Source of the DNA: a virus
DNA length: 64,000 nt
IMG/VR virus record: IMGVR_UViG_3300008108_000067
Span: 1 to 64,000 of that record
Strand: one strand, 5' to 3'
In this document: positions 10,305-44,269 of the stretch, one piece after another
Position numbering within the stretch: position 1 is the stretch's first letter
Layout of the letters: each line of letters begins with the position of its first letter
Translations under genes and position numbers: made by a program
The notes under the pieces: model-generated
What the model was told of the DNA's origin: nothing
Database searches by the model: none
The model's input: the letters and a program-made list of their open reading frames with translations, nothing else

Positions 10305-10799
10305 TTAGTAGTTCAATACACAATAGTCTGGTTGAATTTCTAGTTCGATTGCCACATTGTCTGTGGTTTCCGCCCATTCTAAATCACCAAATGTTGCACG
10401 TGTAATTTGTGCACCCTTGATAATCCATTCTTCAACCTTATCACCTACTGGTCCAAGAACTTGAAGGGTTAAATCTTTCTTATAGAATTCCGCGTATCCA
10501 TCACGACCTGTTACTGATTCGTGATGTAGACGAACCCATTCCATTACTGCTTGTGCGCCAGATGGAACTACTGGATCGTACAACGTAAGGGTCATTGGTT
10601 GCCATACAGAAATACCCTTGACAAAGCGAACGGTATTGATGTGTGGAACCTTAATCGTATCTTGACGAATTTCAGGACGGCTTACTTTCTTAACGATGTA
10701 AGCTGGGATTCCTTCAATTAACATTAAAAAGCGATTTTTAACCTTTGGTTCAAATGCCGTAAAAAATATTTCATTTTCGGCTACTATATTGTTTGCCAT
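10305..10799 (-). CDS. Tail tube protein (T4 gp19-like)
   Basis: FEPKVKNRF...WQPMTLTLYDP...VMEW...YKKDLTL...VEEWIIKGA; directly downstream of the sheath gene. Confidence 0.9.
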   Translation of the reverse strand: MANNIVAENEIFFTAFEPKVKNRFLMLIEGIPAYIVKKVSRPEIRQDTIKVPHINTVRFVKGISVWQPMTLTLYDPVVPSGAQAVMEWVRLHHESVTGRDGYAEFYKKDLTLQVLGPVGDKVEEWIIKGAQITRATFGDLEWAETTDNVAIELEIQPDYCVLNY

Positions 10800-10860: not shown

Positions 10861-13212
10861 TTAAGCCCCAGGGAATGTAGCACCCGTTGGGAGAATGTTG
10901 AATTCGAGTTTGATGAATTCAGCAGTCTTTGTTGGTTGGAGATACAATTGACCAACCAAGATGTTACGGTCAATTACGTCTGGTGTATTATTGGTTTCGT
11001 CCATAATGACACGGAATGCGTATAGACCTGAACGTTCTTGGACGTTTGCCAAATATGGGTTGACGATGTTCAAGAAACGACGACGAGTTGATTCAACGTT
11101 TTGTTCAAATACGAGGAATCGTGCCGAACTTGCGATGAACTTCTTCACTGCGATTAATAAGCGACGAACGTTTACACGGTCAAGTGCTGATGAGCGACGT
11201 TGTAATGTCTTTTGACCCCATACACAAATACCTTGTCCTGGGAATTGTGCGATTGGGTTGACCTTACCATCATACAATTCATCACGTTGTACTTGACTTA
11301 AACGTAACTTAACACCTGCTGCTCCTGGGATTCCACCACGATTCAAACCTGCTGGTGCAAACCATTCTGCTGCTGTGTTGTCACTATATGCGTATACTTC
11401 TGGAAGTACTGCTGATGGTGGAACAAATGCGAATTTGTTTGTATTATCATCTAGTACTCGAATCCAAGGATAGTATGCTGCTGCGTAGTTACTATCAAGT
11501 AATGCTGCTTGGTTGACTGCTGTTGTGATTGTTGAACTTGCTTGTGTTAAATCCATAATATAGAAACAATCACCACGTTGTTCACATACACTTAATGCGT
11601 AGTTAGCTACGTACGGATGTAATTCATAAACAACACCAGGAAGTACCAACAAGTTAATATCGTATGCATCAGGATTGCTAATTGCATCTAATGCTTTCTT
11701 ATATGCTCGTGAACCTGCACTTGTTGCAGTTTGTAAGTTAAATCCTTGTGTGTTATTTGATGTAATACCGTCATACATGTTGATATAACGTGCTGGGTTA
11801 TCACCATCAAATCCACCTTGAAGTGGTACAGTAAACTTCAAATATGCCGTAACTGATGGCGTTGTTAAGAAGTTTGCAACTGCTACAGCGTTTCCAGAAT
11901 CGTCATACAATTCATTTGCTGGAAGATTTTCAAGGTTAAATGCTGCACCGCGTGTTACTGAACCACTTGGAAGTGGTGCCAAGTAAGACATATTGGTGTT
12001 AGGTGTATCTGAGTATTGGAATCCGTAGAATTCATTTACATTGTATGTTGCTTGTGTACTGTATCCACGGGTACTTCCAGAAATCCAAGATGAACTAATA
12101 AATGTTGGAATTGGAAGAACTGATCCAGATGTTCCAATTGGTGAGTTCAATGATGCAAATCCGAATGGTAATGCATCTGTTGATACGTTATCAGCACCAG
12201 GTGCCATTTCAACACGAATGAATTGTGAGTTATTACGATAGTCACCTTCAAAATAACGTTCACCTGAACTATTTTCTACTGGTGCACTATTACCAATTCG
12301 TCGTGCGATATAATTTGGACTATTTGGGTCCATACTTAAATTATCATACTGTTCCAATACTGATGGTTGTGCATCGGTATCTGTGAAGTCACGTACTAAT
12401 AATGTAAATGTACCATAGTCACCAGAAATTTGTGCTTTCTTAGGACCAACGATGGAAATCTTGACATCCTTGTTTGCTGCATTACCATCTGTTAATGTAT
12501 GCACCTTAAACAAATTATCGTTTGAACCACCAAGTGTTTGTGATTGTATCCAAGGTGTACTTGCAAAACTATATTTACCGTATGTACTACCAGTTAAGAA
12601 TAGTGCATCGGAACTAGTTACTGCTGACATACTAACGGAAGCACCTGCCATTGTAATTGCTTCTGGGAAGATTCCGTAGATATATCCGTTCTTTGCGCCT
12701 GTTGGACCGTAGCCAAGATAATTTCCAATATAAGAAGCTGCGGATGTTGTTGTACTGAGTCCTGTTGTTGTTACATCCGTGACTGCTGATGAAGAAATGG
12801 TAAGTGAGAAATTACTTGCTGGCCCCGTTGCATTAATTGCTTCAATACTACTACCCGATACTGTTGGGTGGATAACTGCGTAAACAAATGAACCACTCGT
12901 ACCGGTAGCTGTTAAAATTGCTGGTGTTGCTGTGGTTGGACTATATCCGTCCAATCCAAGAACACGAACAACTGTTGCTCGTCCTGATTCTCTGAGATAA
13001 TTCTTAACAGTTAATCCCAAAAATGACTTTCCATCAGGTGTTCCAAATACGTTTTCAAACGCTTGTTGATTTTCAACAATCGTTGGAATAAAAGCTGGAC
13101 CTTTTGGTGTTGGTCCGATAAATGCTCCAGCAATTTCACCAACGCCTTGTTCTAAGAAACTAAGGTCACGTTCTTGTGTGAAAACGCCAGGACTCACAAT
13201 GCGTTCTGCCAT
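10861..13212 (-). CDS. Tail sheath protein (T4 gp18-like)
   Basis: N-terminal SPGVFTQERD; C-terminal WFAPAGLNRG, WGQKTL, RVNVRRLL, PTKTAEFI. Confidence 0.95.
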   Translation of the reverse strand: MAERIVSPGVFTQERDLSFLEQGVGEIAGAFIGPTPKGPAFIPTIVENQQAFENVFGTPDGKSFLGLTVKNYLRESGRATVVRVLGLDGYSPTTATPAILTATGTSGSFVYAVIHPTVSGSSIEAINATGPASNFSLTISSSAVTDVTTTGLSTTTSAASYIGNYLGYGPTGAKNGYIYGIFPEAITMAGASVSMSAVTSSDALFLTGSTYGKYSFASTPWIQSQTLGGSNDNLFKVHTLTDGNAANKDVKISIVGPKKAQISGDYGTFTLLVRDFTDTDAQPSVLEQYDNLSMDPNSPNYIARRIGNSAPVENSSGERYFEGDYRNNSQFIRVEMAPGADNVSTDALPFGFASLNSPIGTSGSVLPIPTFISSSWISGSTRGYSTQATYNVNEFYGFQYSDTPNTNMSYLAPLPSGSVTRGAAFNLENLPANELYDDSGNAVAVANFLTTPSVTAYLKFTVPLQGGFDGDNPARYINMYDGITSNNTQGFNLQTATSAGSRAYKKALDAISNPDAYDINLLVLPGVVYELHPYVANYALSVCEQRGDCFYIMDLTQASSTITTAVNQAALLDSNYAAAYYPWIRVLDDNTNKFAFVPPSAVLPEVYAYSDNTAAEWFAPAGLNRGGIPGAAGVKLRLSQVQRDELYDGKVNPIAQFPGQGICVWGQKTLQRRSSALDRVNVRRLLIAVKKFIASSARFLVFEQNVESTRRRFLNIVNPYLANVQERSGLYAFRVIMDETNNTPDVIDRNILVGQLYLQPTKTAEFIKLEFNILPTGATFPGA

Positions 13213-16123: not shown

Positions 16124-17692
16124 TTAGATTGTTGCCAATCCGTCGATGAAGATTTTGCCGAAGAATTCTGGACGTACGATCTTCTTCGCGTAGCGGGTCA
16201 TTACGCCGCGACGTGGTGTGAAGTTGTTTGGATCGTAGACCAATGGGGTCATGATGAGTGGGATATATGGTGCGTAGACTGCACCAGTTTCGAGGAAGTT
16301 ACTTCCACGGAAGCCCATCAACAATGTGTTTTCGGTCATGTATGGGTTCTTGTAGATTGTGTAACGGTTTTGGAATGAACCAACCTTGGTTACGCCACCT
16401 GCAAATTCCATCTTGTCACCGTCTGTTGCTGCCATAAAACCAGGGATGGTTTCGATGATTGTTGCAACTGTTGGTGAAACCACTGCGAAGTTAGCACCGC
16501 CACGCATTGTGAGTTGGTGGATACGGTTACTGACTTTTTGCATCTTCTGACCAAGTGTTTGGTACCAGGTCATGTTTGTCCAAGCTTGACCACTGAGTGT
16601 TGCACTTGGTACGAATGCTGTACCATTCCATACCTTACCGACTTCTGCGTGCCAGTATTCGGTTGTTGTTGCGTTGTTGATTAACATGTCAAGGATTTCG
16701 AGGTCGATTTCTGTTGAGATGTAATCACTTAACATTGCTGTTAATTCTGCTTCTGCGTCAACACTGTGGTATGCGTTCAAGTCTTGTGCAAGTTCTGGTG
16801 ACCAGACTGCCTTCAACTTACGTGTCTTAGCAACGATTGTTTCTGAACGAAGTTCCAAATCAATTTGTGGAATGTTCAAGTTTGTTACTGAGTTGTCACG
16901 ATCTTCGAAGTCACCACGAGTTGTTTCAGTTGGTTGCTTACTGTATTCAACTGCTGTGATTGTTGCTGCAGCTGCTGCTGAACCACTTACGATGAAGGTT
17001 ACGTTTGTACCATCATACTTGGTGAATTCTGGGAGTAAGTCACCTGTTACGGTGTCTGTAATGCGGAATGAACGAACTGCGTTGAAATCTGCATTTGAGA
17101 AACTTACTGCTGGAACAACGAACTTGAAGAATGATGCAAATGATGAAGAATATGCATCGTTATAGTTTACATCACCGTATGAAGTTACAGATGATGATGC
17201 GATTGCTGGAGCAAGTGTTAATGTTGCATCATTTACTGAGTATGCATATTCACCAGCACCGTAGAAACCACCGCGTGGAAGAACACCTGAACCACTGGTT
17301 GTTCCATATACTGAACCACCTGCTGTCTTACCGTTGATTGTGTTTGCGTACTTGAAGTCCATGAAGAATACCAAACCTGCTGGTAAGTTCATTGGTTGGA
17401 CTGATACGAAGTTCTTCGATGCGATTGAACCGAATACCTTACGTACTAATGGAAGTGCGACACCTGCCCAGTTTTCACCAGCTGTGCCCGAACCACCTGG
17501 GTTTGTGGTTGTTGCTTCTGAAAGAAGTTGTGTTGCTTGGTTTTCCAACATTACTGCCATGCCTTGCTTTTCGTGGCCAGTTAAGCCTTCGAGAAGGCCT
17601 GACTTTTCCCACTTGCCTGCCAATTGGCGGGTCTTTTCAACTACCACGCGGTGTGCTGAACCGGCTTCGTTGATAAATTCTGATACTGACAT
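16124..17692 (-). CDS. Major capsid protein (T4 gp23-like)
   Basis: VSVQPMNLPAGLVF, AKTRKLKAVWSPELAQDLNAYHSVDAEAEL, YAPYIPL, FTPRRGVMTRYA. Confidence 0.97.
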   Translation of the reverse strand: MSVSEFINEAGSAHRVVVEKTRQLAGKWEKSGLLEGLTGHEKQGMAVMLENQATQLLSEATTTNPGGSGTAGENWAGVALPLVRKVFGSIASKNFVSVQPMNLPAGLVFFMDFKYANTINGKTAGGSVYGTTSGSGVLPRGGFYGAGEYAYSVNDATLTLAPAIASSSVTSYGDVNYNDAYSSSFASFFKFVVPAVSFSNADFNAVRSFRITDTVTGDLLPEFTKYDGTNVTFIVSGSAAAAATITAVEYSKQPTETTRGDFEDRDNSVTNLNIPQIDLELRSETIVAKTRKLKAVWSPELAQDLNAYHSVDAEAELTAMLSDYISTEIDLEILDMLINNATTTEYWHAEVGKVWNGTAFVPSATLSGQAWTNMTWYQTLGQKMQKVSNRIHQLTMRGGANFAVVSPTVATIIETIPGFMAATDGDKMEFAGGVTKVGSFQNRYTIYKNPYMTENTLLMGFRGSNFLETGAVYAPYIPLIMTPLVYDPNNFTPRRGVMTRYAKKIVRPEFFGKIFIDGLATI

Positions 17693-23496: not shown

Positions 23497-25380
23497 TTAA
23501 TTTTCTAGGTCCAAAATGTTACTTTCGTCCAACAATGTTTGTGAAGATAAGGTAGATTCCATAATAATTTTTTTAGAATTTGCCTTATTCAAGAATGCTT
23601 GTACTTCCAAAGATAGTGGTGATTTACGTTTGTCGTTTCTCTGCTTACCCACTTTAAAAACTTTTTTATTTTCTTTGTGTCCTAGTGGATCACGACCTCG
23701 TGGGTGACTATCTTGACCAAATTTCATTCCTTCTCGTGGACGACCCATCTTAGCTTCTTCTAATTCTTCCTCTGGAATTTCCAGTTCACTTTCTTCACTT
23801 GGTTCTTCAAGAGAGGATAAAATGGTATTAACATCATCTATTTGTTGATCTTGTTCCGGAGCTGCCTGACTGTCTGGTTCTCCTGCGGGAAGTTCCTCTG
23901 GTGGTGCTTCCGTTGGCTGACCTGCCTGTTGCTCAATTCCAGTCAACTCCGACATACGTTTGACATCTTCTATAATCTTTTTACGTTCCGTAATAATTTC
24001 ATCTTCTGATAATTCTAGGATGTTGTGGTAAACCCAATCTTGGGATAACATCTTAGATTCCATAATTTGTGTAGCAACACCTACCTTTTCCTTCCACAAA
24101 TTTAATTTTTCTTGTTCGTAGATGACCGATGGATTGGTTAATGATAGTTCAAAATCAACTAAATCTTCATCTGTAAATCCTTGAACGTATAGATGGATAA
24201 TCGCAATCTTAGTTAATTCCGATACCATGATTCTCTGGATACGTTCGATTGTACGAGCAAATCGTACATCTTGCGCAGCCAACGTAGCTTTTCCACTAAT
24301 ATCTTCATCATATCCTATAAATGATTTGGGGACTTTAAATGCTGCCAAAAGTTTTCTACGGAGATATTCAATATCTTCAATTGCATTGAATTGTAACCCA
24401 GGAAGATTCTGAATGTCAGTACCACTATCTTTTCCACGGGTTGGTAAGAAGAAATCTTCTGTGATATTTTGCATATTATATCGAAGATTATAATCACCCG
24501 TTTGTGGATCAACTAATGGTGTCTTTTTCATACGGTCAATAATACGACTCATAAACGTATCAATTTCGGCAGGTGGTATATTACCAATATCTACTAAAAT
24601 CTTACGTTTATCTGGTGCTCTCATAATACGATGAATTAACATCGCATCTTCCATCAATTGAAGTTGCTTCCACACACGACGACCACCTTCAATCATACTT
24701 TTTCCATATGGAAGGAAGTTGGTGTCTGCTAATAATCGGAAGTGGGCAATTTCGTAATTATCAAATTCTGTTTTACCCAGTGCCAAGAAATCGTTTTCAA
24801 TCTTGAATTTTACAGAGAATGGATTGCCTGGGTCTTGTCCTTCAATACGGATGGTTTCATATACAGATAACGGCAATACGTTGACAACACCATATTCCGG
24901 GTCAATGTCGAGATATAAGAAGAAATCTCCATACTTACACATATTTCTGACCCACGGCCAGAGATTAAATTCTACGTTGAGAATGTCGTAAAATAAATTG
25001 TGAAGAATTTCTTGTATTTGAGTGTTTTTTGAATGGATACTGATTATTTGATTGAATTCGTCTTTAACAGTACTTTCGTCTGCATAGATATCCATAACCG
25101 ATGCGATAATAGGGTCATTATCCATCATGTCGTAGTCACGGAATAATTGTAACCGTGAACCTTGGAACGCCGCGGCTGCTTCATATCGTCCGTGGGCAGA
25201 ACCATATCCACCCGTCATTGACGAATAGACGCGATGGTATCTATCAATACCGCGTCTATTGATAAATGCTTGAATATTATCGGTGTCTGCGATTCTTAAC
25301 TTTTTTCCACCAACATTACGAACTATCGTGTTAGAAGAAAAAAGTTTCTTTAATCTGCCAAATATGCCGTTGTCAGCCAT
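23497..25380 (-). CDS. Portal protein (T4 gp20-like)
   Basis: WKQLQLMEDAMLIHRIMRAPDKR..VDIGNIP, EDFFLP.RG...GTDI..LPG, IEDIEYLRRKL.AAFKVP. Confidence 0.95.
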   Translation of the reverse strand: MADNGIFGRLKKLFSSNTIVRNVGGKKLRIADTDNIQAFINRRGIDRYHRVYSSMTGGYGSAHGRYEAAAAFQGSRLQLFRDYDMMDNDPIIASVMDIYADESTVKDEFNQIISIHSKNTQIQEILHNLFYDILNVEFNLWPWVRNMCKYGDFFLYLDIDPEYGVVNVLPLSVYETIRIEGQDPGNPFSVKFKIENDFLALGKTEFDNYEIAHFRLLADTNFLPYGKSMIEGGRRVWKQLQLMEDAMLIHRIMRAPDKRKILVDIGNIPPAEIDTFMSRIIDRMKKTPLVDPQTGDYNLRYNMQNITEDFFLPTRGKDSGTDIQNLPGLQFNAIEDIEYLRRKLLAAFKVPKSFIGYDEDISGKATLAAQDVRFARTIERIQRIMVSELTKIAIIHLYVQGFTDEDLVDFELSLTNPSVIYEQEKLNLWKEKVGVATQIMESKMLSQDWVYHNILELSEDEIITERKKIIEDVKRMSELTGIEQQAGQPTEAPPEELPAGEPDSQAAPEQDQQIDDVNTILSSLEEPSEESELEIPEEELEEAKMGRPREGMKFGQDSHPRGRDPLGHKENKKVFKVGKQRNDKRKSPLSLEVQAFLNKANSKKIIMESTLSSQTLLDESNILDLEN

Positions 25381-29018: not shown

Positions 29019-30605
29019 TTATCCTAGTAACCACGATATATTTTCCTTCTTACCACCAATTTCCATTTCATATGGATTGTGTGTAACATGCTTATTTGTG
29101 TACACCATACCTTCTACACTATACCTTGTCTTGTCCAATGTTAACTTCGTCAGTTCTATACCCTCCTGGCGCAACCTGAGGGCGGTGTCCCGTACCCATA
29201 GACCTATACACAATGCCATCGTCAAGTCATCGTTATAACCAGATAATGCTTCTGGTCTACCGTTCTTCCAAATAAAAGTATCTAATTCGGCGCACATACG
29301 AGATGACCGAATAGTAAAACTATTTTCTAACATATATTCTTTTAATCGTGCGATAACCAACGGACGAGTTCTTTGCGAGGTGGTGAACCCAGGTACCATA
29401 TTTCGTTCTTCACGATAATACTTTCCGGTCATTTGATGCTCGACATCCACATATTGTAAATCTTTGGACATATAAAAGAGATTTTTATATCCTCGGTCTA
29501 TAACTTGTTGTATTGCGTTCCATCCTATACTACTATTTTCTGGGATGAGTAGTGCATCATTGTATTCTGTTGCGATGGACACCAACATATTACCAAACTG
29601 TTTGGTTTCTACCTTTCCTTTATATTCTGCCACTTGGGTTGACGTTTCTACATCAATCACATGAAATGCGGAATAGTCCTCACCATCTCCACGAGATACG
29701 TCAGCCGAAACAATATAGGATTTCCCGGATTGTGGGTACTCCCATATCCATAAGTTTCCATCAAACCCACCCTTACTAATAGGTTCTTTCACAAACGTGG
29801 ATTTGTAGAATTCAATAATTTCTGGTGGGACAACTGTATTACCTGAGAATATAAACGAGGCATCATGTTCTTGTGCTGCCTGCATTTCACCAAGAATTTC
29901 TGTTTGACGGTCACGCCATGCCTGGTCACGTTCTGGATGTACTTGCCAATCCAACAAGATTGGATTAAATTCGTTTGCTTGACTTTCTGCTTGTTGCCAC
30001 ATCTTGTGGAAGAAGTTACCCACACCGTTTGGAGTGGAAATAAGAATAGCTTTTCCACCCGTGGATAACGTACTTGATGCTGCCGTCCAGATAATGTCGG
30101 CGTTATCAATAAATGCACACTCGTCAAGAATCAATAGAGACAATGCTTCGGAACGTCCAGCGTCTTTACTACTTGCCACAGCTTTAATCTGTGACCCGTT
30201 GGTAAATTGTAATGACAGTTTATTATCTGTTAATATTTCACCACGTAACCACACAGGAAGGTTTTGATGCATAAAACGAACTTTGGTTACTAAGTTTTTT
30301 GCAGTTTCTTGCTTGGTTGCGATAACAAGAATATTCTTGTCTTTGTGAAACAACATCAACCACAACGCATACCCCGCAACTAATGTAGAGAAACCTAACT
30401 GACGCCCTTTAAGTACAATGTTATATCGGTTTTCTTCAAACTCTCCCATCGCCTTTGCTTGGTATGGATATAAGTCAAACAACACCCGACCACGAATCGG
30501 GTGTTGAATATACGAATATTTAGATAAAAAGTACTCAGGCTGGAGTGCGCACTTTTTATATTCTTCTTTAATACGTTCACGTAACTGTTGTGCTGTTGTA
30601 TTCAT
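29019..30605 (-). CDS. Terminase large subunit (T4 gp17-like)
   Basis: KGRQLGFST (Walker A), LLILDECAF (Walker B), ISTPNG, nuclease SADVSRGDGEDYSAF and NDDLTMA. Confidence 0.95.
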   Translation of the reverse strand: MNTTAQQLRERIKEEYKKCALQPEYFLSKYSYIQHPIRGRVLFDLYPYQAKAMGEFEENRYNIVLKGRQLGFSTLVAGYALWLMLFHKDKNILVIATKQETAKNLVTKVRFMHQNLPVWLRGEILTDNKLSLQFTNGSQIKAVASSKDAGRSEALSLLILDECAFIDNADIIWTAASSTLSTGGKAILISTPNGVGNFFHKMWQQAESQANEFNPILLDWQVHPERDQAWRDRQTEILGEMQAAQEHDASFIFSGNTVVPPEIIEFYKSTFVKEPISKGGFDGNLWIWEYPQSGKSYIVSADVSRGDGEDYSAFHVIDVETSTQVAEYKGKVETKQFGNMLVSIATEYNDALLIPENSSIGWNAIQQVIDRGYKNLFYMSKDLQYVDVEHQMTGKYYREERNMVPGFTTSQRTRPLVIARLKEYMLENSFTIRSSRMCAELDTFIWKNGRPEALSGYNDDLTMALCIGLWVRDTALRLRQEGIELTKLTLDKTRYSVEGMVYTNKHVTHNPYEMEIGGKKENISWLLG

Positions 30606-36525: not shown

Positions 36526-36535
36526 TATAAATAGT
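36526..36535 (-). promoter_or_regulatory. Putative late promoter box ACTATTTATA
   Basis: Exact copy, 27 nt upstream of ATG 36499 and immediately after the SbcCD stop. Confidence 0.65.
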
Positions 36536-36537
36536 TA

Positions 36538-39500
36538 TCACGATTGGATATAGGAGAATCCGTCCTCTCTTTTTATCTCAATTAAATTGTCCACCATATC
36601 TCTAGCCGCATCCAAATGACTGATGACAATAAGGAAATCGAATTGAGTTTTGAGAATACCGAACATCGTATGCATTGAACTTAAATTTTCCGCATCAAGA
36701 GTACCCAATCCTTCATCAATAATCATAAAGTTAGACTTTGGTAAGTTTGAAGCGTTCATCAATGCCACACGGATAGCCAAACTACTGATGAACCGTTCCA
36801 TACCCGACGAGTTTTCCAACGGCCAGATACGGTCATAATCGTAGTTTAATTTACCCACGATGTTTTTTCCATCCACTTCGAGAGAAATAGTAAAGTCCAC
36901 TATTTGTGACAGAATATTGTTAATTTCTGCCTCAATATTTGGTATAGCTTTACTCATCAAGTCGTACGGAATACCATCACGACCAACAGCTTCCATATAA
37001 TACTTATATGCTTCGTAAGTATTCTCCAACTCTTCGGCTTCCTTAATCTGGTTCATAATATCGGTCTTGGTGGCTTCCAGTACCTTGACCTCACCGTGAA
37101 GTTCACGGATAACCTTTTCCATATGGTCAGCCTTCTTCTTTGCCGATGCAATATCGTGTTCGACAAAAGAGATTTGCTTATCAATATCTACATTATGTTC
37201 GATATTTTCTTTGTTCAACCGATGAAGTTCAATATCATTTTCTATTTGTTCCCGCTTACGGTCACACTTTTCGATGTTGGTAATCAACTTCTGGATTTCC
37301 AGTTCAACTCCACTTGCATTCTTTTGAAGCTGTTGGACTTCGGTTTGTAACTTTTCATAACTTACACAAAGATTGACCTTCTCGACCAACGGTTCCATCT
37401 GCTCCTTAATTGTGGTAAGGGCATCTTCTTGGTCAAATCGGAGTCTATCCAACTGTACCAGTTCTGCGTTTACTTGGTCCTTATCAGCGATAACTGACTT
37501 ATTGTTTTCTACACACACCAAACAGTCTGAATTGTACTTGTACCCAGATAACTTCTGCTGGAACTTCTCCTTCTCAGTAATCTTGGAAACGGTAAGTTTC
37601 AATGCAGATGACCCCTTGTTAAATAATCCAGTTAATCTCTCGTATTCACTTACCGCCTGCTTTAGTTCTGGAATATTTGCCTCTACCACCCGATGTGTCT
37701 TTTCAGTGATGTTCTGGTTGAGCAGTTTTAGTCGTTCCTCTGCTTCCGTTTTTTGTTGTTCGTAGGTTGCAGACAATTCTATGGTCTTGTCTTTGTTTGA
37801 TAAGAGTGTATCAATGTCTAGTTCAATATTTGGAACAGGACGTTTCTTATCTTGGAATTCCTTTAATTTTTCATAAAAAGTTTCTTGTTCTTGTTTGAGC
37901 CTTGTAAATATACCTTCAATCCGTTCATGCTCCTCACGAGTCGTATCCAACTTGGTCTGAGTATCCGATAAAGTTTGGGTAAAATCTATCTTCTTAAACT
38001 TACGAAGTGCCCCAGAAATTTCCTTCATCTCATCATTTGCTGTGTCACATAACTTATCAAAGATACTTAATCCCATAAACTGAATGAGAAGGTCTTTACG
38101 TTCAGAATGTGACTTATCAATAAACAATGCGTTACTAGTTTGACCACTTAATGCAGTCAAGACGAAATCTTCATAACTACCAACATAATTACGAATGTTG
38201 GCATTAGTATCACGACGGTCCTCACCATTGAGTGAAGTATGTGTTCCGTCCTCGTTTTCCTTCCAGAACAAGACATCTACCTTGACATCACCATTCTTCT
38301 TACGAGTTCCAGTTCTACGGATGTAGAATATTTCATCGTTGATTTCAAACTTTAATTGACAGGTGAATTCGTTTTTACGGTTGTTCATGATGTGGTCACC
38401 ACGGAACGCACGTGGTGTCTTGTCGTAAAGACAGAAGATGAGTGCATCCATTGAAGAACTCTTTCCCGTTGCGTTCTGAGCAAACACTCCGTATATTCCC
38501 TTCATCTTCCCAAAGTTAATCACATTGTCCTCACCATAGGAGAACATATTAGAAAACTTTAATTGAATAGGACGCCAATGTACATTTCTAGAATGATCAT
38601 CGTGACTAATTTGTGCATTGAGATTTTTATTAACATCCAAAATTTTTGTCATCAATGGACGGTCAATTGTATTATCATACTGACGTTCCAACCAATCTTG
38701 AATGAGTTGGTTCTGTATGTTTAGATTGTTTACATCAACAATATCTGATCCACTCTTAATTTTGTCACGATTGGTATTATCGGTTCTGGACTTGTTAATG
38801 CTTAGTTCAATAATATTATATTGTTTGCGTAGTGTTGCTACTACCTTCTTAACACCAGAATTATCAAGAGTTCCCGTAAAAAGTCGCATGCGAACATTTT
38901 TTGGAACATCCGTAGGGAATGGTAATTTTCCATTCTTAACTTCCAACGTATAATATCCATAATTATTTTGTAATGACTTGAATTCATGTGTGCATGCACT
39001 GACATCCCACATACACCAACCGTGATTATCTACCGTTTCTCCGTGGTTCTGCTGAATGAGTGAGGATGCGTACACTATAATTGGTTTCTTTGCGTGTACA
39101 TCTCGTTCTTGTAGTATCTGGTATTTGTGGATGTCACCCAACAGTACCATATCAAATCCGTTGAACAATGATGTTTCAACGTGACGGTTAGTAATTACGT
39201 ACCGTGCATCGGTTTGTGCACCGTGTACTGGTCCGTGGTATAATGCAATCTTACGGCGACCCTCACAATCCTTTACGGAAGGCCACTGTTCTCTATCATC
39301 CAAAATGGAAAATACAGCAAAATCAGTATCACCAACTTGATAGATACCAGAATGTTTTAGATAGTGTAATTGTTCGTGGTTAATACTTTTGATTAGTGGT
39401 GTCAAACTATCCAATCGGTTCATATTGGACAGATTCAAATCGTGATTACCAGCAATCACTAAGGTGGGAGCTATGTTAGCTAGGTTCTTTAAAAACTCCG

Positions 39501-39717
39501 TTGCCATCATCACCATTTCAGGACTCATGTCCGTCTTTGCGTGCAGAATATCACCAGCAACAACAATAACCGAGTCAGTCAAATCTTCTTGACGTAACTG
39601 GTTATATAGTGTTTCAAAACATTCCCGATATTCATCGTGTCGTTTAAATAGTCGTATATGAATATCCGCAAGGTGTACAATTTTATTAAGCTTGTTAATA
39701 CCAGCGATATGTGTCAT
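36538..39717 (-). CDS. Fused SbcD/Mre11 nuclease - SbcC/Rad50 ATPase (gp47-gp46-like)
   Basis: ADIH, AGDILH, AGNHD, LGDIH (phosphoesterase); AQNATGKSS Walker A; CLVC zinc hook; SSGME signature; IIDEG Walker B. Confidence 0.9.
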   Translation of the reverse strand: MTHIAGINKLNKIVHLADIHIRLFKRHDEYRECFETLYNQLRQEDLTDSVIVVAGDILHAKTDMSPEMVMMATEFLKNLANIAPTLVIAGNHDLNLSNMNRLDSLTPLIKSINHEQLHYLKHSGIYQVGDTDFAVFSILDDREQWPSVKDCEGRRKIALYHGPVHGAQTDARYVITNRHVETSLFNGFDMVLLGDIHKYQILQERDVHAKKPIIVYASSLIQQNHGETVDNHGWCMWDVSACTHEFKSLQNNYGYYTLEVKNGKLPFPTDVPKNVRMRLFTGTLDNSGVKKVVATLRKQYNIIELSINKSRTDNTNRDKIKSGSDIVDVNNLNIQNQLIQDWLERQYDNTIDRPLMTKILDVNKNLNAQISHDDHSRNVHWRPIQLKFSNMFSYGEDNVINFGKMKGIYGVFAQNATGKSSSMDALIFCLYDKTPRAFRGDHIMNNRKNEFTCQLKFEINDEIFYIRRTGTRKKNGDVKVDVLFWKENEDGTHTSLNGEDRRDTNANIRNYVGSYEDFVLTALSGQTSNALFIDKSHSERKDLLIQFMGLSIFDKLCDTANDEMKEISGALRKFKKIDFTQTLSDTQTKLDTTREEHERIEGIFTRLKQEQETFYEKLKEFQDKKRPVPNIELDIDTLLSNKDKTIELSATYEQQKTEAEERLKLLNQNITEKTHRVVEANIPELKQAVSEYERLTGLFNKGSSALKLTVSKITEKEKFQQKLSGYKYNSDCLVCVENNKSVIADKDQVNAELVQLDRLRFDQEDALTTIKEQMEPLVEKVNLCVSYEKLQTEVQQLQKNASGVELEIQKLITNIEKCDRKREQIENDIELHRLNKENIEHNVDIDKQISFVEHDIASAKKKADHMEKVIRELHGEVKVLEATKTDIMNQIKEAEELENTYEAYKYYMEAVGRDGIPYDLMSKAIPNIEAEINNILSQIVDFTISLEVDGKNIVGKLNYDYDRIWPLENSSGMERFISSLAIRVALMNASNLPKSNFMIIDEGLGTLDAENLSSMHTMFGILKTQFDFLIVISHLDAARDMVDNLIEIKREDGFSYIQS

Positions 39718-40628
39718 GTGTTTTGTAACCTATTTTGTATAAAGTCCTTAAATGTCGTTGCCTTTGAGTTATTTATAAACTCCCAGGTCTTTTGAAATCC
39801 AAGGTCGGCGGCGTCCCCACCACTCACCGATACTTGTGATACATTAATACCATATGATGTTAACTTTCGTTCCAGATTCAATGCTTCTGTCTTTGCATCA
39901 TCGTCAAGAAGAATATACACGTTCTTGACTTTATTTTCAAGTAGTTTTACTTCTAATTTTTTCGGTAAAAACTTCCCCAACATTGGAATTGCATTCCGTC
40001 GAACTGAGATAGCGTCAAACACTCCTTCCACTAATACAATCGGTTCGTTCCAATTAATCTGTTCTTCAAATACCACCACATTCTTTGATACTGGTGGGTT
40101 CTTGTACTTCATATTTGTATCGTGATATGCACGTGCGATGAAGTAATTTAGCTTTCCATCTACACCATACGAAGGGACAATAATACGACCACCATACTGA
40201 CCTGTCTCACAATATCCCATTCGATAACGGATAATATCGTATCCAGAAATGCTACGCTTCTTTAAGTAATTGATTGCGTGTTTGTATTCAAATGTATTGG
40301 TGGGTTTCCAAAGTGGTTTAAATTCGTGTGGAAGGTGAAGCTCAACAATTTCGTCCGTTGATGTATCTGTATAACTCTTAACATCTTCTTCACTCAAACA
40401 CTTTTTAAGCTCTTTTATTTGTGCGGGTGACACATCCAGTTTTCTAAACAAACCAAGTAGGTGCCCACCTTTTGCACCACACACCCAACACTTCCATTTA
40501 TTCTTTACAACATTAACTGCGAACTTCTTGTTACGATGATGGCAAAACGGGCAGGAGAAGTAGTGTTCTCCTTTGCCCATATGGTCATAATTGCCGAGTA
40601 TTTGTGATAAGAGAGAGATTAGATTCAT
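39714..40628 (-). CDS. DNA primase (Zn-binding + TOPRIM)
   Basis: CPFCHH...KCWVC; LVEGVFDA; LLDDDA. Confidence 0.88.
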   Translation of the reverse strand: MNLISLLSQILGNYDHMGKGEHYFSCPFCHHRNKKFAVNVVKNKWKCWVCGAKGGHLLGLFRKLDVSPAQIKELKKCLSEEDVKSYTDTSTDEIVELHLPHEFKPLWKPTNTFEYKHAINYLKKRSISGYDIIRYRMGYCETGQYGGRIIVPSYGVDGKLNYFIARAYHDTNMKYKNPPVSKNVVVFEEQINWNEPIVLVEGVFDAISVRRNAIPMLGKFLPKKLEVKLLENKVKNVYILLDDDAKTEALNLERKLTSYGINVSQVSVSGGDAADLGFQKTWEFINNSKATTFKDFIQNRLQNT

Positions 40629-40665
40629 ATGTTAGAAATCTAACCTCTCTCCTTCAAAAAAACAA
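40609..40665 (-). promoter_or_regulatory. Sigma70-like promoter overlapping a start-codon-sequestering hairpin at primase
   Basis: TTGTTT(40665-40660)-17 nt-TAGATT(40642-40637); inverted repeat 40611-40625/40637-40651 with ATG in the loop. Confidence 0.6.
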
Positions 40666-40676
40666 GTGTTAATTTA

Positions 40677-41027
40677 TTAATTTATATTTTTTGGTTTGGT
40701 CAATTCAAAAAAATGTTCTGCTTCTATAACAGCGTATGTTTTTGTATTATTTCTTTTAAAGAACACTACTGGGTGGGTATTTTCCTTATTATTTTTCTCT
40801 GCTTGTTGTAGTGCTGACCAAATATTAACTTTTTCTTGGTTCTTACACTCAGGAGAATACGGAAACACTTTCCGAGCAGCGGGGCTGAGTTTTATATCAG
40901 CCCCCGAATCACCCATCAATGTAGATACTACATCGTCTGGTTCTAGCTGTGGAAAGTGTTCGAGTATAAGATCACGGATTGCGTTCTGCAATCGTTTTCC
41001 TTTGTTTTTTGCGCTGCGAGCCTTCAT
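40677..41027 (-). CDS. PD-(D/E)xK nuclease, Holliday junction resolvase-like
   Basis: SAKNKGKRLQ...GADI...ECKNQE. Confidence 0.7.
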   Translation of the reverse strand: MKARSAKNKGKRLQNAIRDLILEHFPQLEPDDVVSTLMGDSGADIKLSPAARKVFPYSPECKNQEKVNIWSALQQAEKNNKENTHPVVFFKRNNTKTYAVIEAEHFFELTKPKNIN

Positions 41028-41512: not shown

Positions 41513-42448
41513 TTAGGTATCAAACTTTACAATGAAAGTTTGGTCTACATTTTTTGCTCGTGGTACTGGATTTGCCAACTTAGCAATTGCAAGTAGCTCG
41601 TAATTGTTGTTATATAACCCAATTGTCGTAACATACGGAGTCAATGTACCAGAATCAAACAATCCAGTTATTGATTCACCAGATGTTGCTTTTGTAGACG
41701 ATGATACATTCGGAACAAAATTATTATATGTAACCGTGGTTGACCCCGAAACGTAAGAACCTGTTACTGTTTTATAATATCCGACTGTGTGATTAAACAC
41801 CGATGCGTTAAATTCTGATGGTCCCATTTTACATACGACTGTATGTTCAGTTATTTCAAACGAGGATGAGAACTTAACATCTACCGATTTAAATCTTTCC
41901 AGTCTTAATCCACTAGTTGTTATGGATTGAGTTGGTGCAGAAAGATTATTTTGTACCACTACAATTCCATGCTTATAAAATATATTACCAACTACATTCG
42001 TAGTATTATTAACATATAATCTACCATAACCGTCATCTAGTATTGGTGATGATCCAGAAACTCTTATACTAAACGTACCTGCTCCAATTCCCTCACCAAC
42101 TGCATCGTTTACGATATTAAACACATACAGCGATGCAGTTGGTGTGTACTTATTTACTGCGATAGATTCTGTGCCATATTCAACAATAGACTGCGATGAA
42201 TAAAATGCATGATTTATCAAACTAAACAACGGGTACGAGTACACACCACTTGCAGAATTATATGTTCCTAAATCTGTATCACTAGTATTTTGGTATTTCC
42301 AATCACTAGGTGGTTGTTCCGCAAAGTCAATAGTTACCAAATCTGTGTTTACTGGTGATCCGGAAACTATTGTATAACTTTGCGATATGTACGCGGTATA
42401 ATTGTTTCTAGTATAACCATCAGTACTGAGAGGTTTGAGAGCTCTCAT
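41513..42448 (-). CDS. Putative baseplate/tail structural protein
   Basis: C-terminal YVTTIGLYNNNYELLAIAKLANPV...FIVKFD, paralogous to the adjacent gene. Confidence 0.6.
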   Translation of the reverse strand: MRALKPLSTDGYTRNNYTAYISQSYTIVSGSPVNTDLVTIDFAEQPPSDWKYQNTSDTDLGTYNSASGVYSYPLFSLINHAFYSSQSIVEYGTESIAVNKYTPTASLYVFNIVNDAVGEGIGAGTFSIRVSGSSPILDDGYGRLYVNNTTNVVGNIFYKHGIVVVQNNLSAPTQSITTSGLRLERFKSVDVKFSSSFEITEHTVVCKMGPSEFNASVFNHTVGYYKTVTGSYVSGSTTVTYNNFVPNVSSSTKATSGESITGLFDSGTLTPYVTTIGLYNNNYELLAIAKLANPVPRAKNVDQTFIVKFDT

Positions 42449-44261: not shown

Positions 44262-44269
44262 TATAAATA
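44262..44269 (-). promoter_or_regulatory. Putative late promoter core TATTTATA
   Basis: TATAAATA on + strand, 33 nt upstream of ATG 44229. Confidence 0.55.

Follow-up and report, generated by a model that had tools for sequence, protein, structure and literature searches.

Several genes of phage T4 (e, which encodes lysozyme, soc, 49, segB, and I-TevI/II/III), as well as mobE of Aeh1, carry a hairpin that occludes the initiation region on long read-through transcripts (PMC3014915, PMC2988022). The promoter of such a T4-type gate lies within the DNA of the hairpin's 5' strand, so RNA started from it is missing that strand and can be translated (PMC3014915, PMC2988022). A second point of reference is provided by leaderless mRNAs, such as those of lambda cI transcribed from PRM and of Tn1721 tetR, for which a 5'-terminal AUG suffices for 70S binding (PMC4965119). 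We analyzed a 64,000-nucleotide stretch of viral DNA (the window), which represents positions 1 to 64,000 of IMG/VR record IMGVR_UViG_3300008108_000067 and makes up the initial 64 kb of one contig (90.9 kb; 37.8% GC), and we followed up a hairpin that spans the start codon of its DnaG-type primase gene. Directly downstream is a gene for a fused SbcD-SbcC nuclease (SbcDC). From comparative sequence evidence, we consider it reasonably probable that the hairpin is a promoter-inside-hairpin gate of the T4 e/soc/I-TevI type, whose active product would be a leaderless primase-SbcDC mRNA.

Like the T4 gates, this locus would place a stable helix (here 17 to 19 bp and -24.8 kcal/mol) over the initiation region of a long RNA. 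It also has a promoter within the 5'-strand region, as judged in this case by sequence geometry and conservation only, with the 5' arm ending at the -10 element. Some related phages have the structure and others lack it, as is also the case among T4-type phages. The embedded promoter in T4 is late (gp55), whereas here it is of the host sigma70 type; the short T4 transcript retains a Shine-Dalgarno (SD) sequence, whereas the predicted transcript here has neither leader nor SD; and the regulated T4 genes are late or selfish, whereas those here are a replication primase and SbcDC. The location of the AUG at the loop edge and of codons 2 to 7 in the stem also sets this hairpin apart. The likely source of read-through is a late-type promoter, and the timing may be reversed relative to T4. 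Similarities to lambda cI and tetR include an AUG start codon, the lack of an SD, an unstructured 5' coding end (0.2 kcal/mol to open), and a promoter placed for a predicted start at or near the A of the AUG, with a possible 2-nt leader in the window. In those systems, however, no hairpin shuts off the leaderless start codon on longer RNA, and here, unlike there, one orthologous gene keeps the leaderless geometry throughout a wide phage family. There is also some resemblance to the split SD of T4 genes 38 and 25, with an SD-like tract too far from the AUG and a small hairpin between them, neither of which is conserved here.

Hairpin at the primase start codon

The mRNA (minus) strand reads ...TTGTTTTTTTGAAGGAGAGAGGTTAGATTTCTAACATATGAATCTAATCTCTCTCTTATC... 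across the primase start. An earlier note on this DNA had described a 17-pair stem including 2 G-U pairs, with the primase AUG in the loop and the first codons as the 3' arm, and sequence inspection and folding confirmed this exactly. The 5' arm, AGGAGAGAGGUUAGAUU (core at 40653-40637, with outer pairs from 40655-40654), lies upstream of the predicted transcription start site. The 11-nt loop, UCUAACAUAUG (40636-40626), has the AUG (40628-40626) as its last three bases. The 3' arm, AAUCUAAUCUCUCUCUU (core at 40625-40609, or 40606-40625 with the outer pairs), is made up of primase codons 2 to 7 (N L I S L L) with a portion of codon 8, and two outer pairs (G40655-C40606 and A40654-U40607) extend the stem.

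The minimum free energy of a 76-nt fold is -24.8 kcal/mol (z = -5.17), a stability reached by none of 200 shuffles. When the entire transcribed strand was folded in sliding 60-nt segments (mean, -8.5; standard deviation, 3.8), the hairpin ranked 5th in stability among 12,788 segments. Direct folding was required to find it, as G-U pairs break the seeds of an exact-seed repeat search (9-nt seed), which misses it. The sole match in an Rfam search was MIR529, on the opposite strand and at 19.5 bits compared to a gathering score of 75, a chance match. We rejected the possibility that the hairpin is an intrinsic terminator: there is no U-tract, the stem is followed by UAUCACAAAU, and a terminator scan did not list it.

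We evaluated conservation using protein-guided searches of IMG/VR and metagenome contigs, which recovered ∼170 loci with 117 distinct start regions (41 to 100% primase identity). The hairpin is kept in all 25 distinct sequences with at least 57% primase identity, at -17.5 to -26.9 kcal/mol; the N-terminus of this hairpin clade is MNLISLLSQILG. Across 23 distinct sequences, 90.6% of cells pair, compared to 45 to 58% with the partners slid, and a 12-pair core pairs in essentially all of them. The compensatory changes that the earlier note had proposed to look for are present: where the Ile4 wobble position changes from C to A, the 5' arm changes from G to U (17 sequences have GC and 6 have UA at pair 37-67), and the Leu6 wobble position, which takes all four bases, is tracked by the 5' arm (pair 31-73 is AU, GU, GC, or UA). 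Several other stem pairs switch between G-U and A-U among relatives, and the observed covariation score was reached by 0 of 500 shuffles. The loop, on the other hand, differs among relatives in both sequence and length (9 to 13 nt).

Synonymous diversity is low in the 3' arm. Leu3 and Ser5, both encoded by six-fold degenerate codons, have H values of 0.08 and 0.00, respectively, compared to 0.5 to 0.7 at comparable downstream codons. In each of the 26 sequences compared, the sense strand folds more stably than the antisense strand (mean difference, 6.4 kcal/mol), owing to the 2 to 5 G-U pairs per sequence. Together, suppressed synonymous diversity and sense-strand stability support selection for pairing at the RNA level. 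The same strand asymmetry led us to reject a simple DNA palindrome or operator.

The alternative short pairing GUUAGA/UCUAAC that had also been pointed out in the earlier note does exist in the window but is not conserved; elsewhere, it occurs only in three sequences that share the window's loop (L005, L013, and L100). The inner pairing is probably irrelevant. Sequestration of an SD via the AGGAG in the 5' arm was likewise rejected. This SD-like tract is not conserved, is 15 to 22 nt from the AUG, and is the complement of the Ser-Leu codons.

Hairpins of the same layout occur in two other designs. A relative with 49% primase identity (L118; N-terminus, MTTLFLLQ) has a 20-bp, -28 kcal/mol hairpin of unrelated sequence, in which the 5' arm is the promoter spacer and the 3' arm is the AUG plus codons 2 to 6. 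No close relatives of this sequence suitable for a covariation test were found in IMG/VR, the nearest being 60 to 66% identical. In a sister clade (MTILTLLQ), opening-energy tests and direct tabulation detected a 9-bp hairpin in 5 of 15 distinct sequences and versions of 6 to 7 bp in 4 more. This short hairpin pairs -7..+2 with +7..+15, and its pair (-4,+12) is A-U, G-C, or U-A, following the Leu wobble (CUU, CUC, or CUA). The AUG is at the 3' loop edge in the window and within the helix in the other two designs. In all three, the 3' arm falls within the first codons and the 5' arm is upstream of the predicted start, the one exception being the short design, whose 5' arm takes in the A and U of the AUG.

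Proposed embedded promoter and start codon accessibility

The 5' arm overlaps a proposed sigma70-type promoter on the minus strand, with a -35 element TTGTTT at 40660..40665 and a -10 element TAGATT at 40637..40642 that is also the top of the arm. This TTGTTT-17-TAGATT promoter, which is followed by 8 nt and then ATG, is present as the earlier note had it, and the leaderless geometry beside the ATG recurs across the family, although the window copy matches only 7 of 12 consensus positions. A clade-invariant box, ACACTTG (40663-40669), contains the TTG of the -35 element; its CTTG is invariant in 23 distinct relatives, with variable flanks on both sides. We rejected ACACTTG as a dispersed phage motif (12 copies versus 11.5 expected, with the other minus-strand copies in coding sequence), and by these counts the box is just the -35 TTG plus clade-level conservation.

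Most members of the 75 to 100% identity clade have TTGATT, TTGTTT, or TTGCTT rather than TTGACA, whereas some members of the window's clade (L107 type) keep a perfect TTGACA. The 17-nt spacer and TAnnnT are retained in every relative of the window's clade. The three middle -10 positions vary even at the cost of stem pairs (42-62, 43-61, and 44-60), and G-to-T changes at these variable positions improve the -10 match. This pattern suggests that promoter and stem are two overlapping constraints.

Clades from 63% down to 43% identity have TTGACA, an unrelated 17-nt spacer, TAnnnT, mostly exactly 6 nt, and then ATG, and every relative in this identity range that carries the promoter has TTGACA as its -35. 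As a control, we compared the 117 primase starts with 222 other open reading frame (ORF) starts in the same loci, counting promoters with the -10 end 5 to 9 nt from the ATG. Matches at ≥9 of 12 positions precede 39 primase starts and 2 of the other starts, and matches at ≥10 of 12 precede 26 and none, respectively. Of the 39 strong primase promoters, 29 have a 6-nt gap between the -10 and the ATG, 5 have a 7-nt gap, and the other 5 have gaps of 5, 8, or 9 nt. With a 6-nt gap, the +1 position falls on the A of the AUG. By the same geometry, the predicted transcription start in the window lies within 40628..40630 on the minus strand: either A40630, the seventh base after the -10 and in a CA context, which would leave a 2-nt leader, or A40628, the first base of the AUG itself. 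Thus, the primase mRNA should start at the AUG or within 2 nt of it. Other candidates for genes with leaderless geometry on the contig are only weak (8 to 9 of 12 positions) and lie in or beside unrelated ORFs, so the arrangement is specific to the primase.

Canonical TTGACA-17-TATATT promoters were noted on the contig minus strand just beyond the window (near 64890, 83700, and 86740). They are intergenic and in the small-ORF, presumably early, part of the genome, and their presence suggests that the phage relies on standard sigma70-type recognition. In Microcystis phage Mel-JY01 (L176; PP395634.1, ∼181960-182020), a clear intrinsic terminator (AGGAACC...GGTTCCTATTTTTTT) precedes the primase promoter, and the primase start has TTGCAC-17-TATATT, then 5 nt, then the annotated ATG. 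As a cultured phage, Mel-JY01 could serve as a direct test bed for leaderless primase expression. Some relatives at ∼45% identity (L048, L074, L076, L079, L080, L093, and similar) have instead a Bacteroidota-type promoter, TTTG-N19-TAnnTTTG, ∼15 to 45 nt before the primase ATG, for example, TTTGGTAAATCC...CGTATATTTG, with a 10- to 15-nt A/T-rich leader. Flavobacterium phage immuto similarly has Bacteroidota-style TTTG...TAnnTTTG elements and a longer leader. The primase thus appears to keep its own promoter across host phyla, with the leaderless geometry being host-type specific.

Many other genes of the phage have strong SDs 4 to 7 nt from the ATG. No functional SD at a usable distance from the primase AUG was found in any relative examined, and there is none in the window's loop or from the predicted start to the AUG. 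We measured accessibility as the computed cost of opening positions +1..+15. In the window, this cost is 18.6 kcal/mol for read-through RNA and 0.2 kcal/mol for RNA that begins with the AUG. The corresponding values for the 25 distinct members of the hairpin clade are 12.7 to 22.8 and 0.2 to 1.5 kcal/mol, compared to 2.4 to 5.6 kcal/mol with shuffled upstream sequence (z, 4.6 to 11.7). The 20-bp design behaves alike (18.6, 1.4, and 4.0 kcal/mol, respectively; z = 9.0). Read-through costs are intermediate in the 51 to 55% identity clade (4 to 9 kcal/mol; z, 0.4 to 2.8) and at background in more distant clades.

Likely read-through source and gene neighborhood

Read-through transcripts probably come from a phage-specific, late-type promoter motif, TATTTATA, whose nearest upstream copy is at 44262..44269 on the minus strand. 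The next copy (36526..36533, minus strand) is directly after SbcDC and marks the end of the unit. The motif has ∼11 intergenic minus-strand sites on the contig, 9 of them in the window, and is usually preceded by AAC. It is found ahead of the tail tube gene, the head-tail adaptor gene, and a small ORF upstream of the sheath gene; given its location before structural genes, we interpret it as a late-type phage promoter. Written as (A)ACTATTTATA(G/T), the recurrent intergenic motif is at 60697-60690, 44269-44262, 36533-36526, 29013-29006, 16046-16039, 13546-13539, 10830-10823, 7644-7637, and 1498-1491, all on the minus strand, with further contig copies at 66719 and 86055, beyond the window. Its distance to the start codons of structural genes, such as those for the tail tube and the head-tail adaptor, is 25 to 35 nt, and it probably serves as the late promoter of the phage. 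Read on the coding strand, as here, the motif corresponds to the reverse complement of TATAAATA, the late box of T4.

The copies at 44269 and 36533 bracket a block of four ORFs without assigned function, a resolvase-like gene, the primase gene, and SbcDC. A terminator scan found no convincing terminator from 44269 to 40665, and the 48-nt spacer after the resolvase-like gene also lacks one. With a late-type promoter upstream and no terminator in between, read-through RNA carrying the 5' arm is therefore expected, in agreement with the upstream read-through proposed in the earlier note.

The primase gene (39714-40628, minus strand) encodes 304 amino acids. It matches phrog_47 DNA primase (E = 2.9e-46) as well as the Pfam families CHC2 zinc ribbon, Toprim, and DNAG_N, each slightly under the curated cutoff. 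An in-frame TAA is two codons before the ATG at 40628-40626, which we take to be the true start because the clade shows no protein-level variation in the N-terminal 12 residues. The SbcDC gene (36538-39717, minus strand; 1,059 amino acids) combines an SbcD part (Metallophos, residues 12 to 199) with an SbcC part (phrog_77 SbcC-like, residues 276 to 1057). Its ATG overlaps the primase TGA as ATGA (39717-39714), and inspection of the sequence upstream of this ATG revealed no SD; SbcDC is therefore probably translationally coupled to the primase, in line with the coupling suggested earlier. In contrast to the fused SbcDC of the window, the exonuclease that follows the primase in Flavobacterium phage immuto has a gene of its own. 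Upstream of and co-directional with the primase is the resolvase-like gene (40677-41027, minus strand), which matches phrog_244, annotated as RusA-like, and weakly PDDEXK_15, and ends 48 nt from the primase AUG.

The phage is an uncultured, freshwater-type myovirus. Its identified structural and packaging genes encode the tail sheath (10861-13212) and tail tube (10305-10799), the major head protein (16124-17692) and portal (23497-25380), and the large terminase (29019-30605), and the minus strand carries 98 of 103 ORFs. The nearest named primase relatives, from phages of Microcystis and Flavobacterium, share just 35 to 36% identity. The use of canonical TTGACA promoters and of strong SDs speaks against a typical Bacteroidota host. 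Beyond the window, ARAGORN detected 27 tRNA genes and a transfer-messenger RNA (tmRNA) gene, all on the minus strand, at contig positions 66752-81013; the tmRNA tag (GNYTLALAA) was uninformative as to host.

Four other minus-strand folds in the window are at least as stable as the primase hairpin (-25.4 to -26.8 kcal/mol), at 10285-10226, 21105-21046, 42145-42086, and 40940-40881. The first immediately follows the tail tube gene, where it may act as a terminator or stabilizer, and the last falls within the resolvase-like gene. A perfect 14-bp inverted repeat (42094-42144) is located within the ORF at 41513-42448.

Proposed gate, alternatives, and implications

We propose that host polymerase with a sigma70-type factor would use the embedded promoter (-35 at 40665-40660 and -10 at 40642-40637) to start RNA at the AUG or 1 to 2 nt before it. 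The resulting leaderless mRNA, with its unstructured 5' end, would be translated from the 5'-terminal AUG, and the fused SbcDC would be translated next via coupling at the ATGA overlap. RNA from upstream, for example, from the TATTTATA promoter at 44269 and through the resolvase-like gene, would carry the promoter spacer and -10, and this segment would pair with codons 2 to 7 to form a 17- to 19-bp hairpin. On such RNA, ribosomes would be unable to initiate internally because there is no SD at a usable distance, leaving the primase and SbcDC untranslated. Synthesis of both proteins would then rely on the embedded promoter alone, probably in early or middle infection, while the host sigma70 holoenzyme is still used. 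We infer the start site, promoter activity, timing, and translational effect of the gate. Wording that is neutral as to timing is safer and fits equally well: translation of primase-SbcDC would be insulated from all upstream transcription and dependent on one promoter. The earlier note had cast the arrangement as a mirror image of the T4 logic, with an early mRNA translated and late read-through RNA silenced. Mechanistically, it would be the same device as that of T4 e, soc, 49, and I-TevI, and what may be swapped is the promoter classes. Overall, that interpretation is partly supported by the comparative evidence.

Several points weigh against the proposed gate. The relatives represent a handful of lineages, and the covariation counts exceed the number of independent events. 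The window promoter, with its 7 of 12 consensus positions, is weak and was not listed by a consensus scan. The -10 is also dictated by AAUCUA pairing, such that its conservation in the window's clade is confounded with that of the stem. The 8-nt gap in the window predicts a 2-nt leader (AUAUG), which may reduce leaderless-type initiation. Assignment of the embedded promoter to an early class and of the TATTTATA copy at 44269 to a late class derives from motif type and the genes served elsewhere, and the four ORFs from 44269 to the resolvase-like gene have no assigned function. Finally, many clades have the promoter without any hairpin, and the leaderless arrangement therefore does not require one.

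One alternative is that the embedded promoter has decayed or is inactive and that the hairpin is a constitutive attenuator, with primase made only from polycistronic RNA and hairpin breathing giving low levels of primase and SbcDC, much like the deliberately poor expression of cellular dnaG. Primases are typically required in small amounts. The hairpin is kept more strictly than the -35 hexamer, which is just TTGTTT in the window and mostly TTGATT, TTGTTT, or TTGCTT in the 75 to 100% identity clade. Yet the CTTG of the -35 is invariant despite its variable flanks, TAnnnT and the 17-nt spacer are always retained, even when stem pairs break, and the L107-type members of the same clade have not lost TTGACA. 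An opening cost of 18.6 kcal/mol without an SD would also allow almost no translation of an essential replication gene, and attenuation does not explain why the 5' arm ends upstream of the predicted start in three unrelated designs. We therefore consider this explanation unlikely. Somewhat less likely still is an RNase III-type cleavage site, or a 3' stabilizer of the upstream message, that splits late upstream mRNA from primase-SbcDC and makes any translational effect secondary. The near-perfect helix of 17 to 20 bp is at the exact boundary between functional modules, and helices of this length are long enough for double-strand-specific RNases. The 6- to 9-bp versions of the sister clade, however, are too short for cleavage but have the same placement across the start site. 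Moreover, a processing site has no need for a 5' arm that ends at the promoter start point, and a U-tract or other 3'-end signal is absent. Processing would nonetheless be compatible with the gate, as a means of inactivating the read-through RNA.

The repeat overlaps the promoter spacer and -10, which are common repressor sites, and the gene concerned is a primase; both facts would fit a DNA-level element, either an operator of the inverted-repeat kind, through which a dimeric regulator would control the embedded promoter, or a single-stranded DNA hairpin for replication or priming. We regard this as very improbable given that sense RNA is the more stable in every sequence compared (G-U pairs are C-A mismatches on the other strand) and that changes pass through G-U intermediates. 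The 20-bp design and the sister clade retain pairing and placement rather than sequence, unlike a protein-binding site, and 17-bp arms 11 nt apart are atypical of operators. Least credible of all is a split-SD enhancer of the T4 genes 38/25 type, a mechanism documented in PMC3014915, in which the inner GUUAGA/UCUAAC hairpin would bring a distant GAGAGG near the AUG and promote translation. The window does have GAGAGG 15 nt from the AUG, with the complementary hexamers in between. However, the inner pairing is restricted to sequences with the window's loop, the loops of other relatives being unrelated, and the SD-like tract is missing in some relatives (e.g., AAAGAGAU in L001). As neither element is conserved and the much more stable long hairpin dominates the ensemble, we rejected this candidate.

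Returning to the promoter-inside-hairpin gate, transcript-specific translation is a classic T4 device, known for a handful of late or selfish genes with SD-led short transcripts. What would be new here is this architecture on a core replication gene pair, delivering a leaderless mRNA. The promoter-6 nt-ATG geometry is conserved for the orthologous primase from 88% to ∼43% protein identity in uncultured freshwater and marine phages. It is conceivable, although we give it little weight, that leaderless primase expression is ancestral and family-wide in a large group of aquatic myoviruses and that a promoter-sensing hairpin evolved at least three times, tying primase-SbcDC to one host sigma70 promoter. 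On that view, the gate may also be part of a wider switch between early, leaderless 70S-type initiation and late, strong-SD initiation, possibly aided by the ribosomal protein bS21 that the phage itself encodes. If the proposed gate is correct, leaderless initiation would be a natural and evolutionarily repeated regulatory output in lytic phages, and the hairpin would provide a compact part of ∼60 nt for promoter-dependent translational insulation. Operon position alone would then be a poor predictor of expression in these phage genomes.

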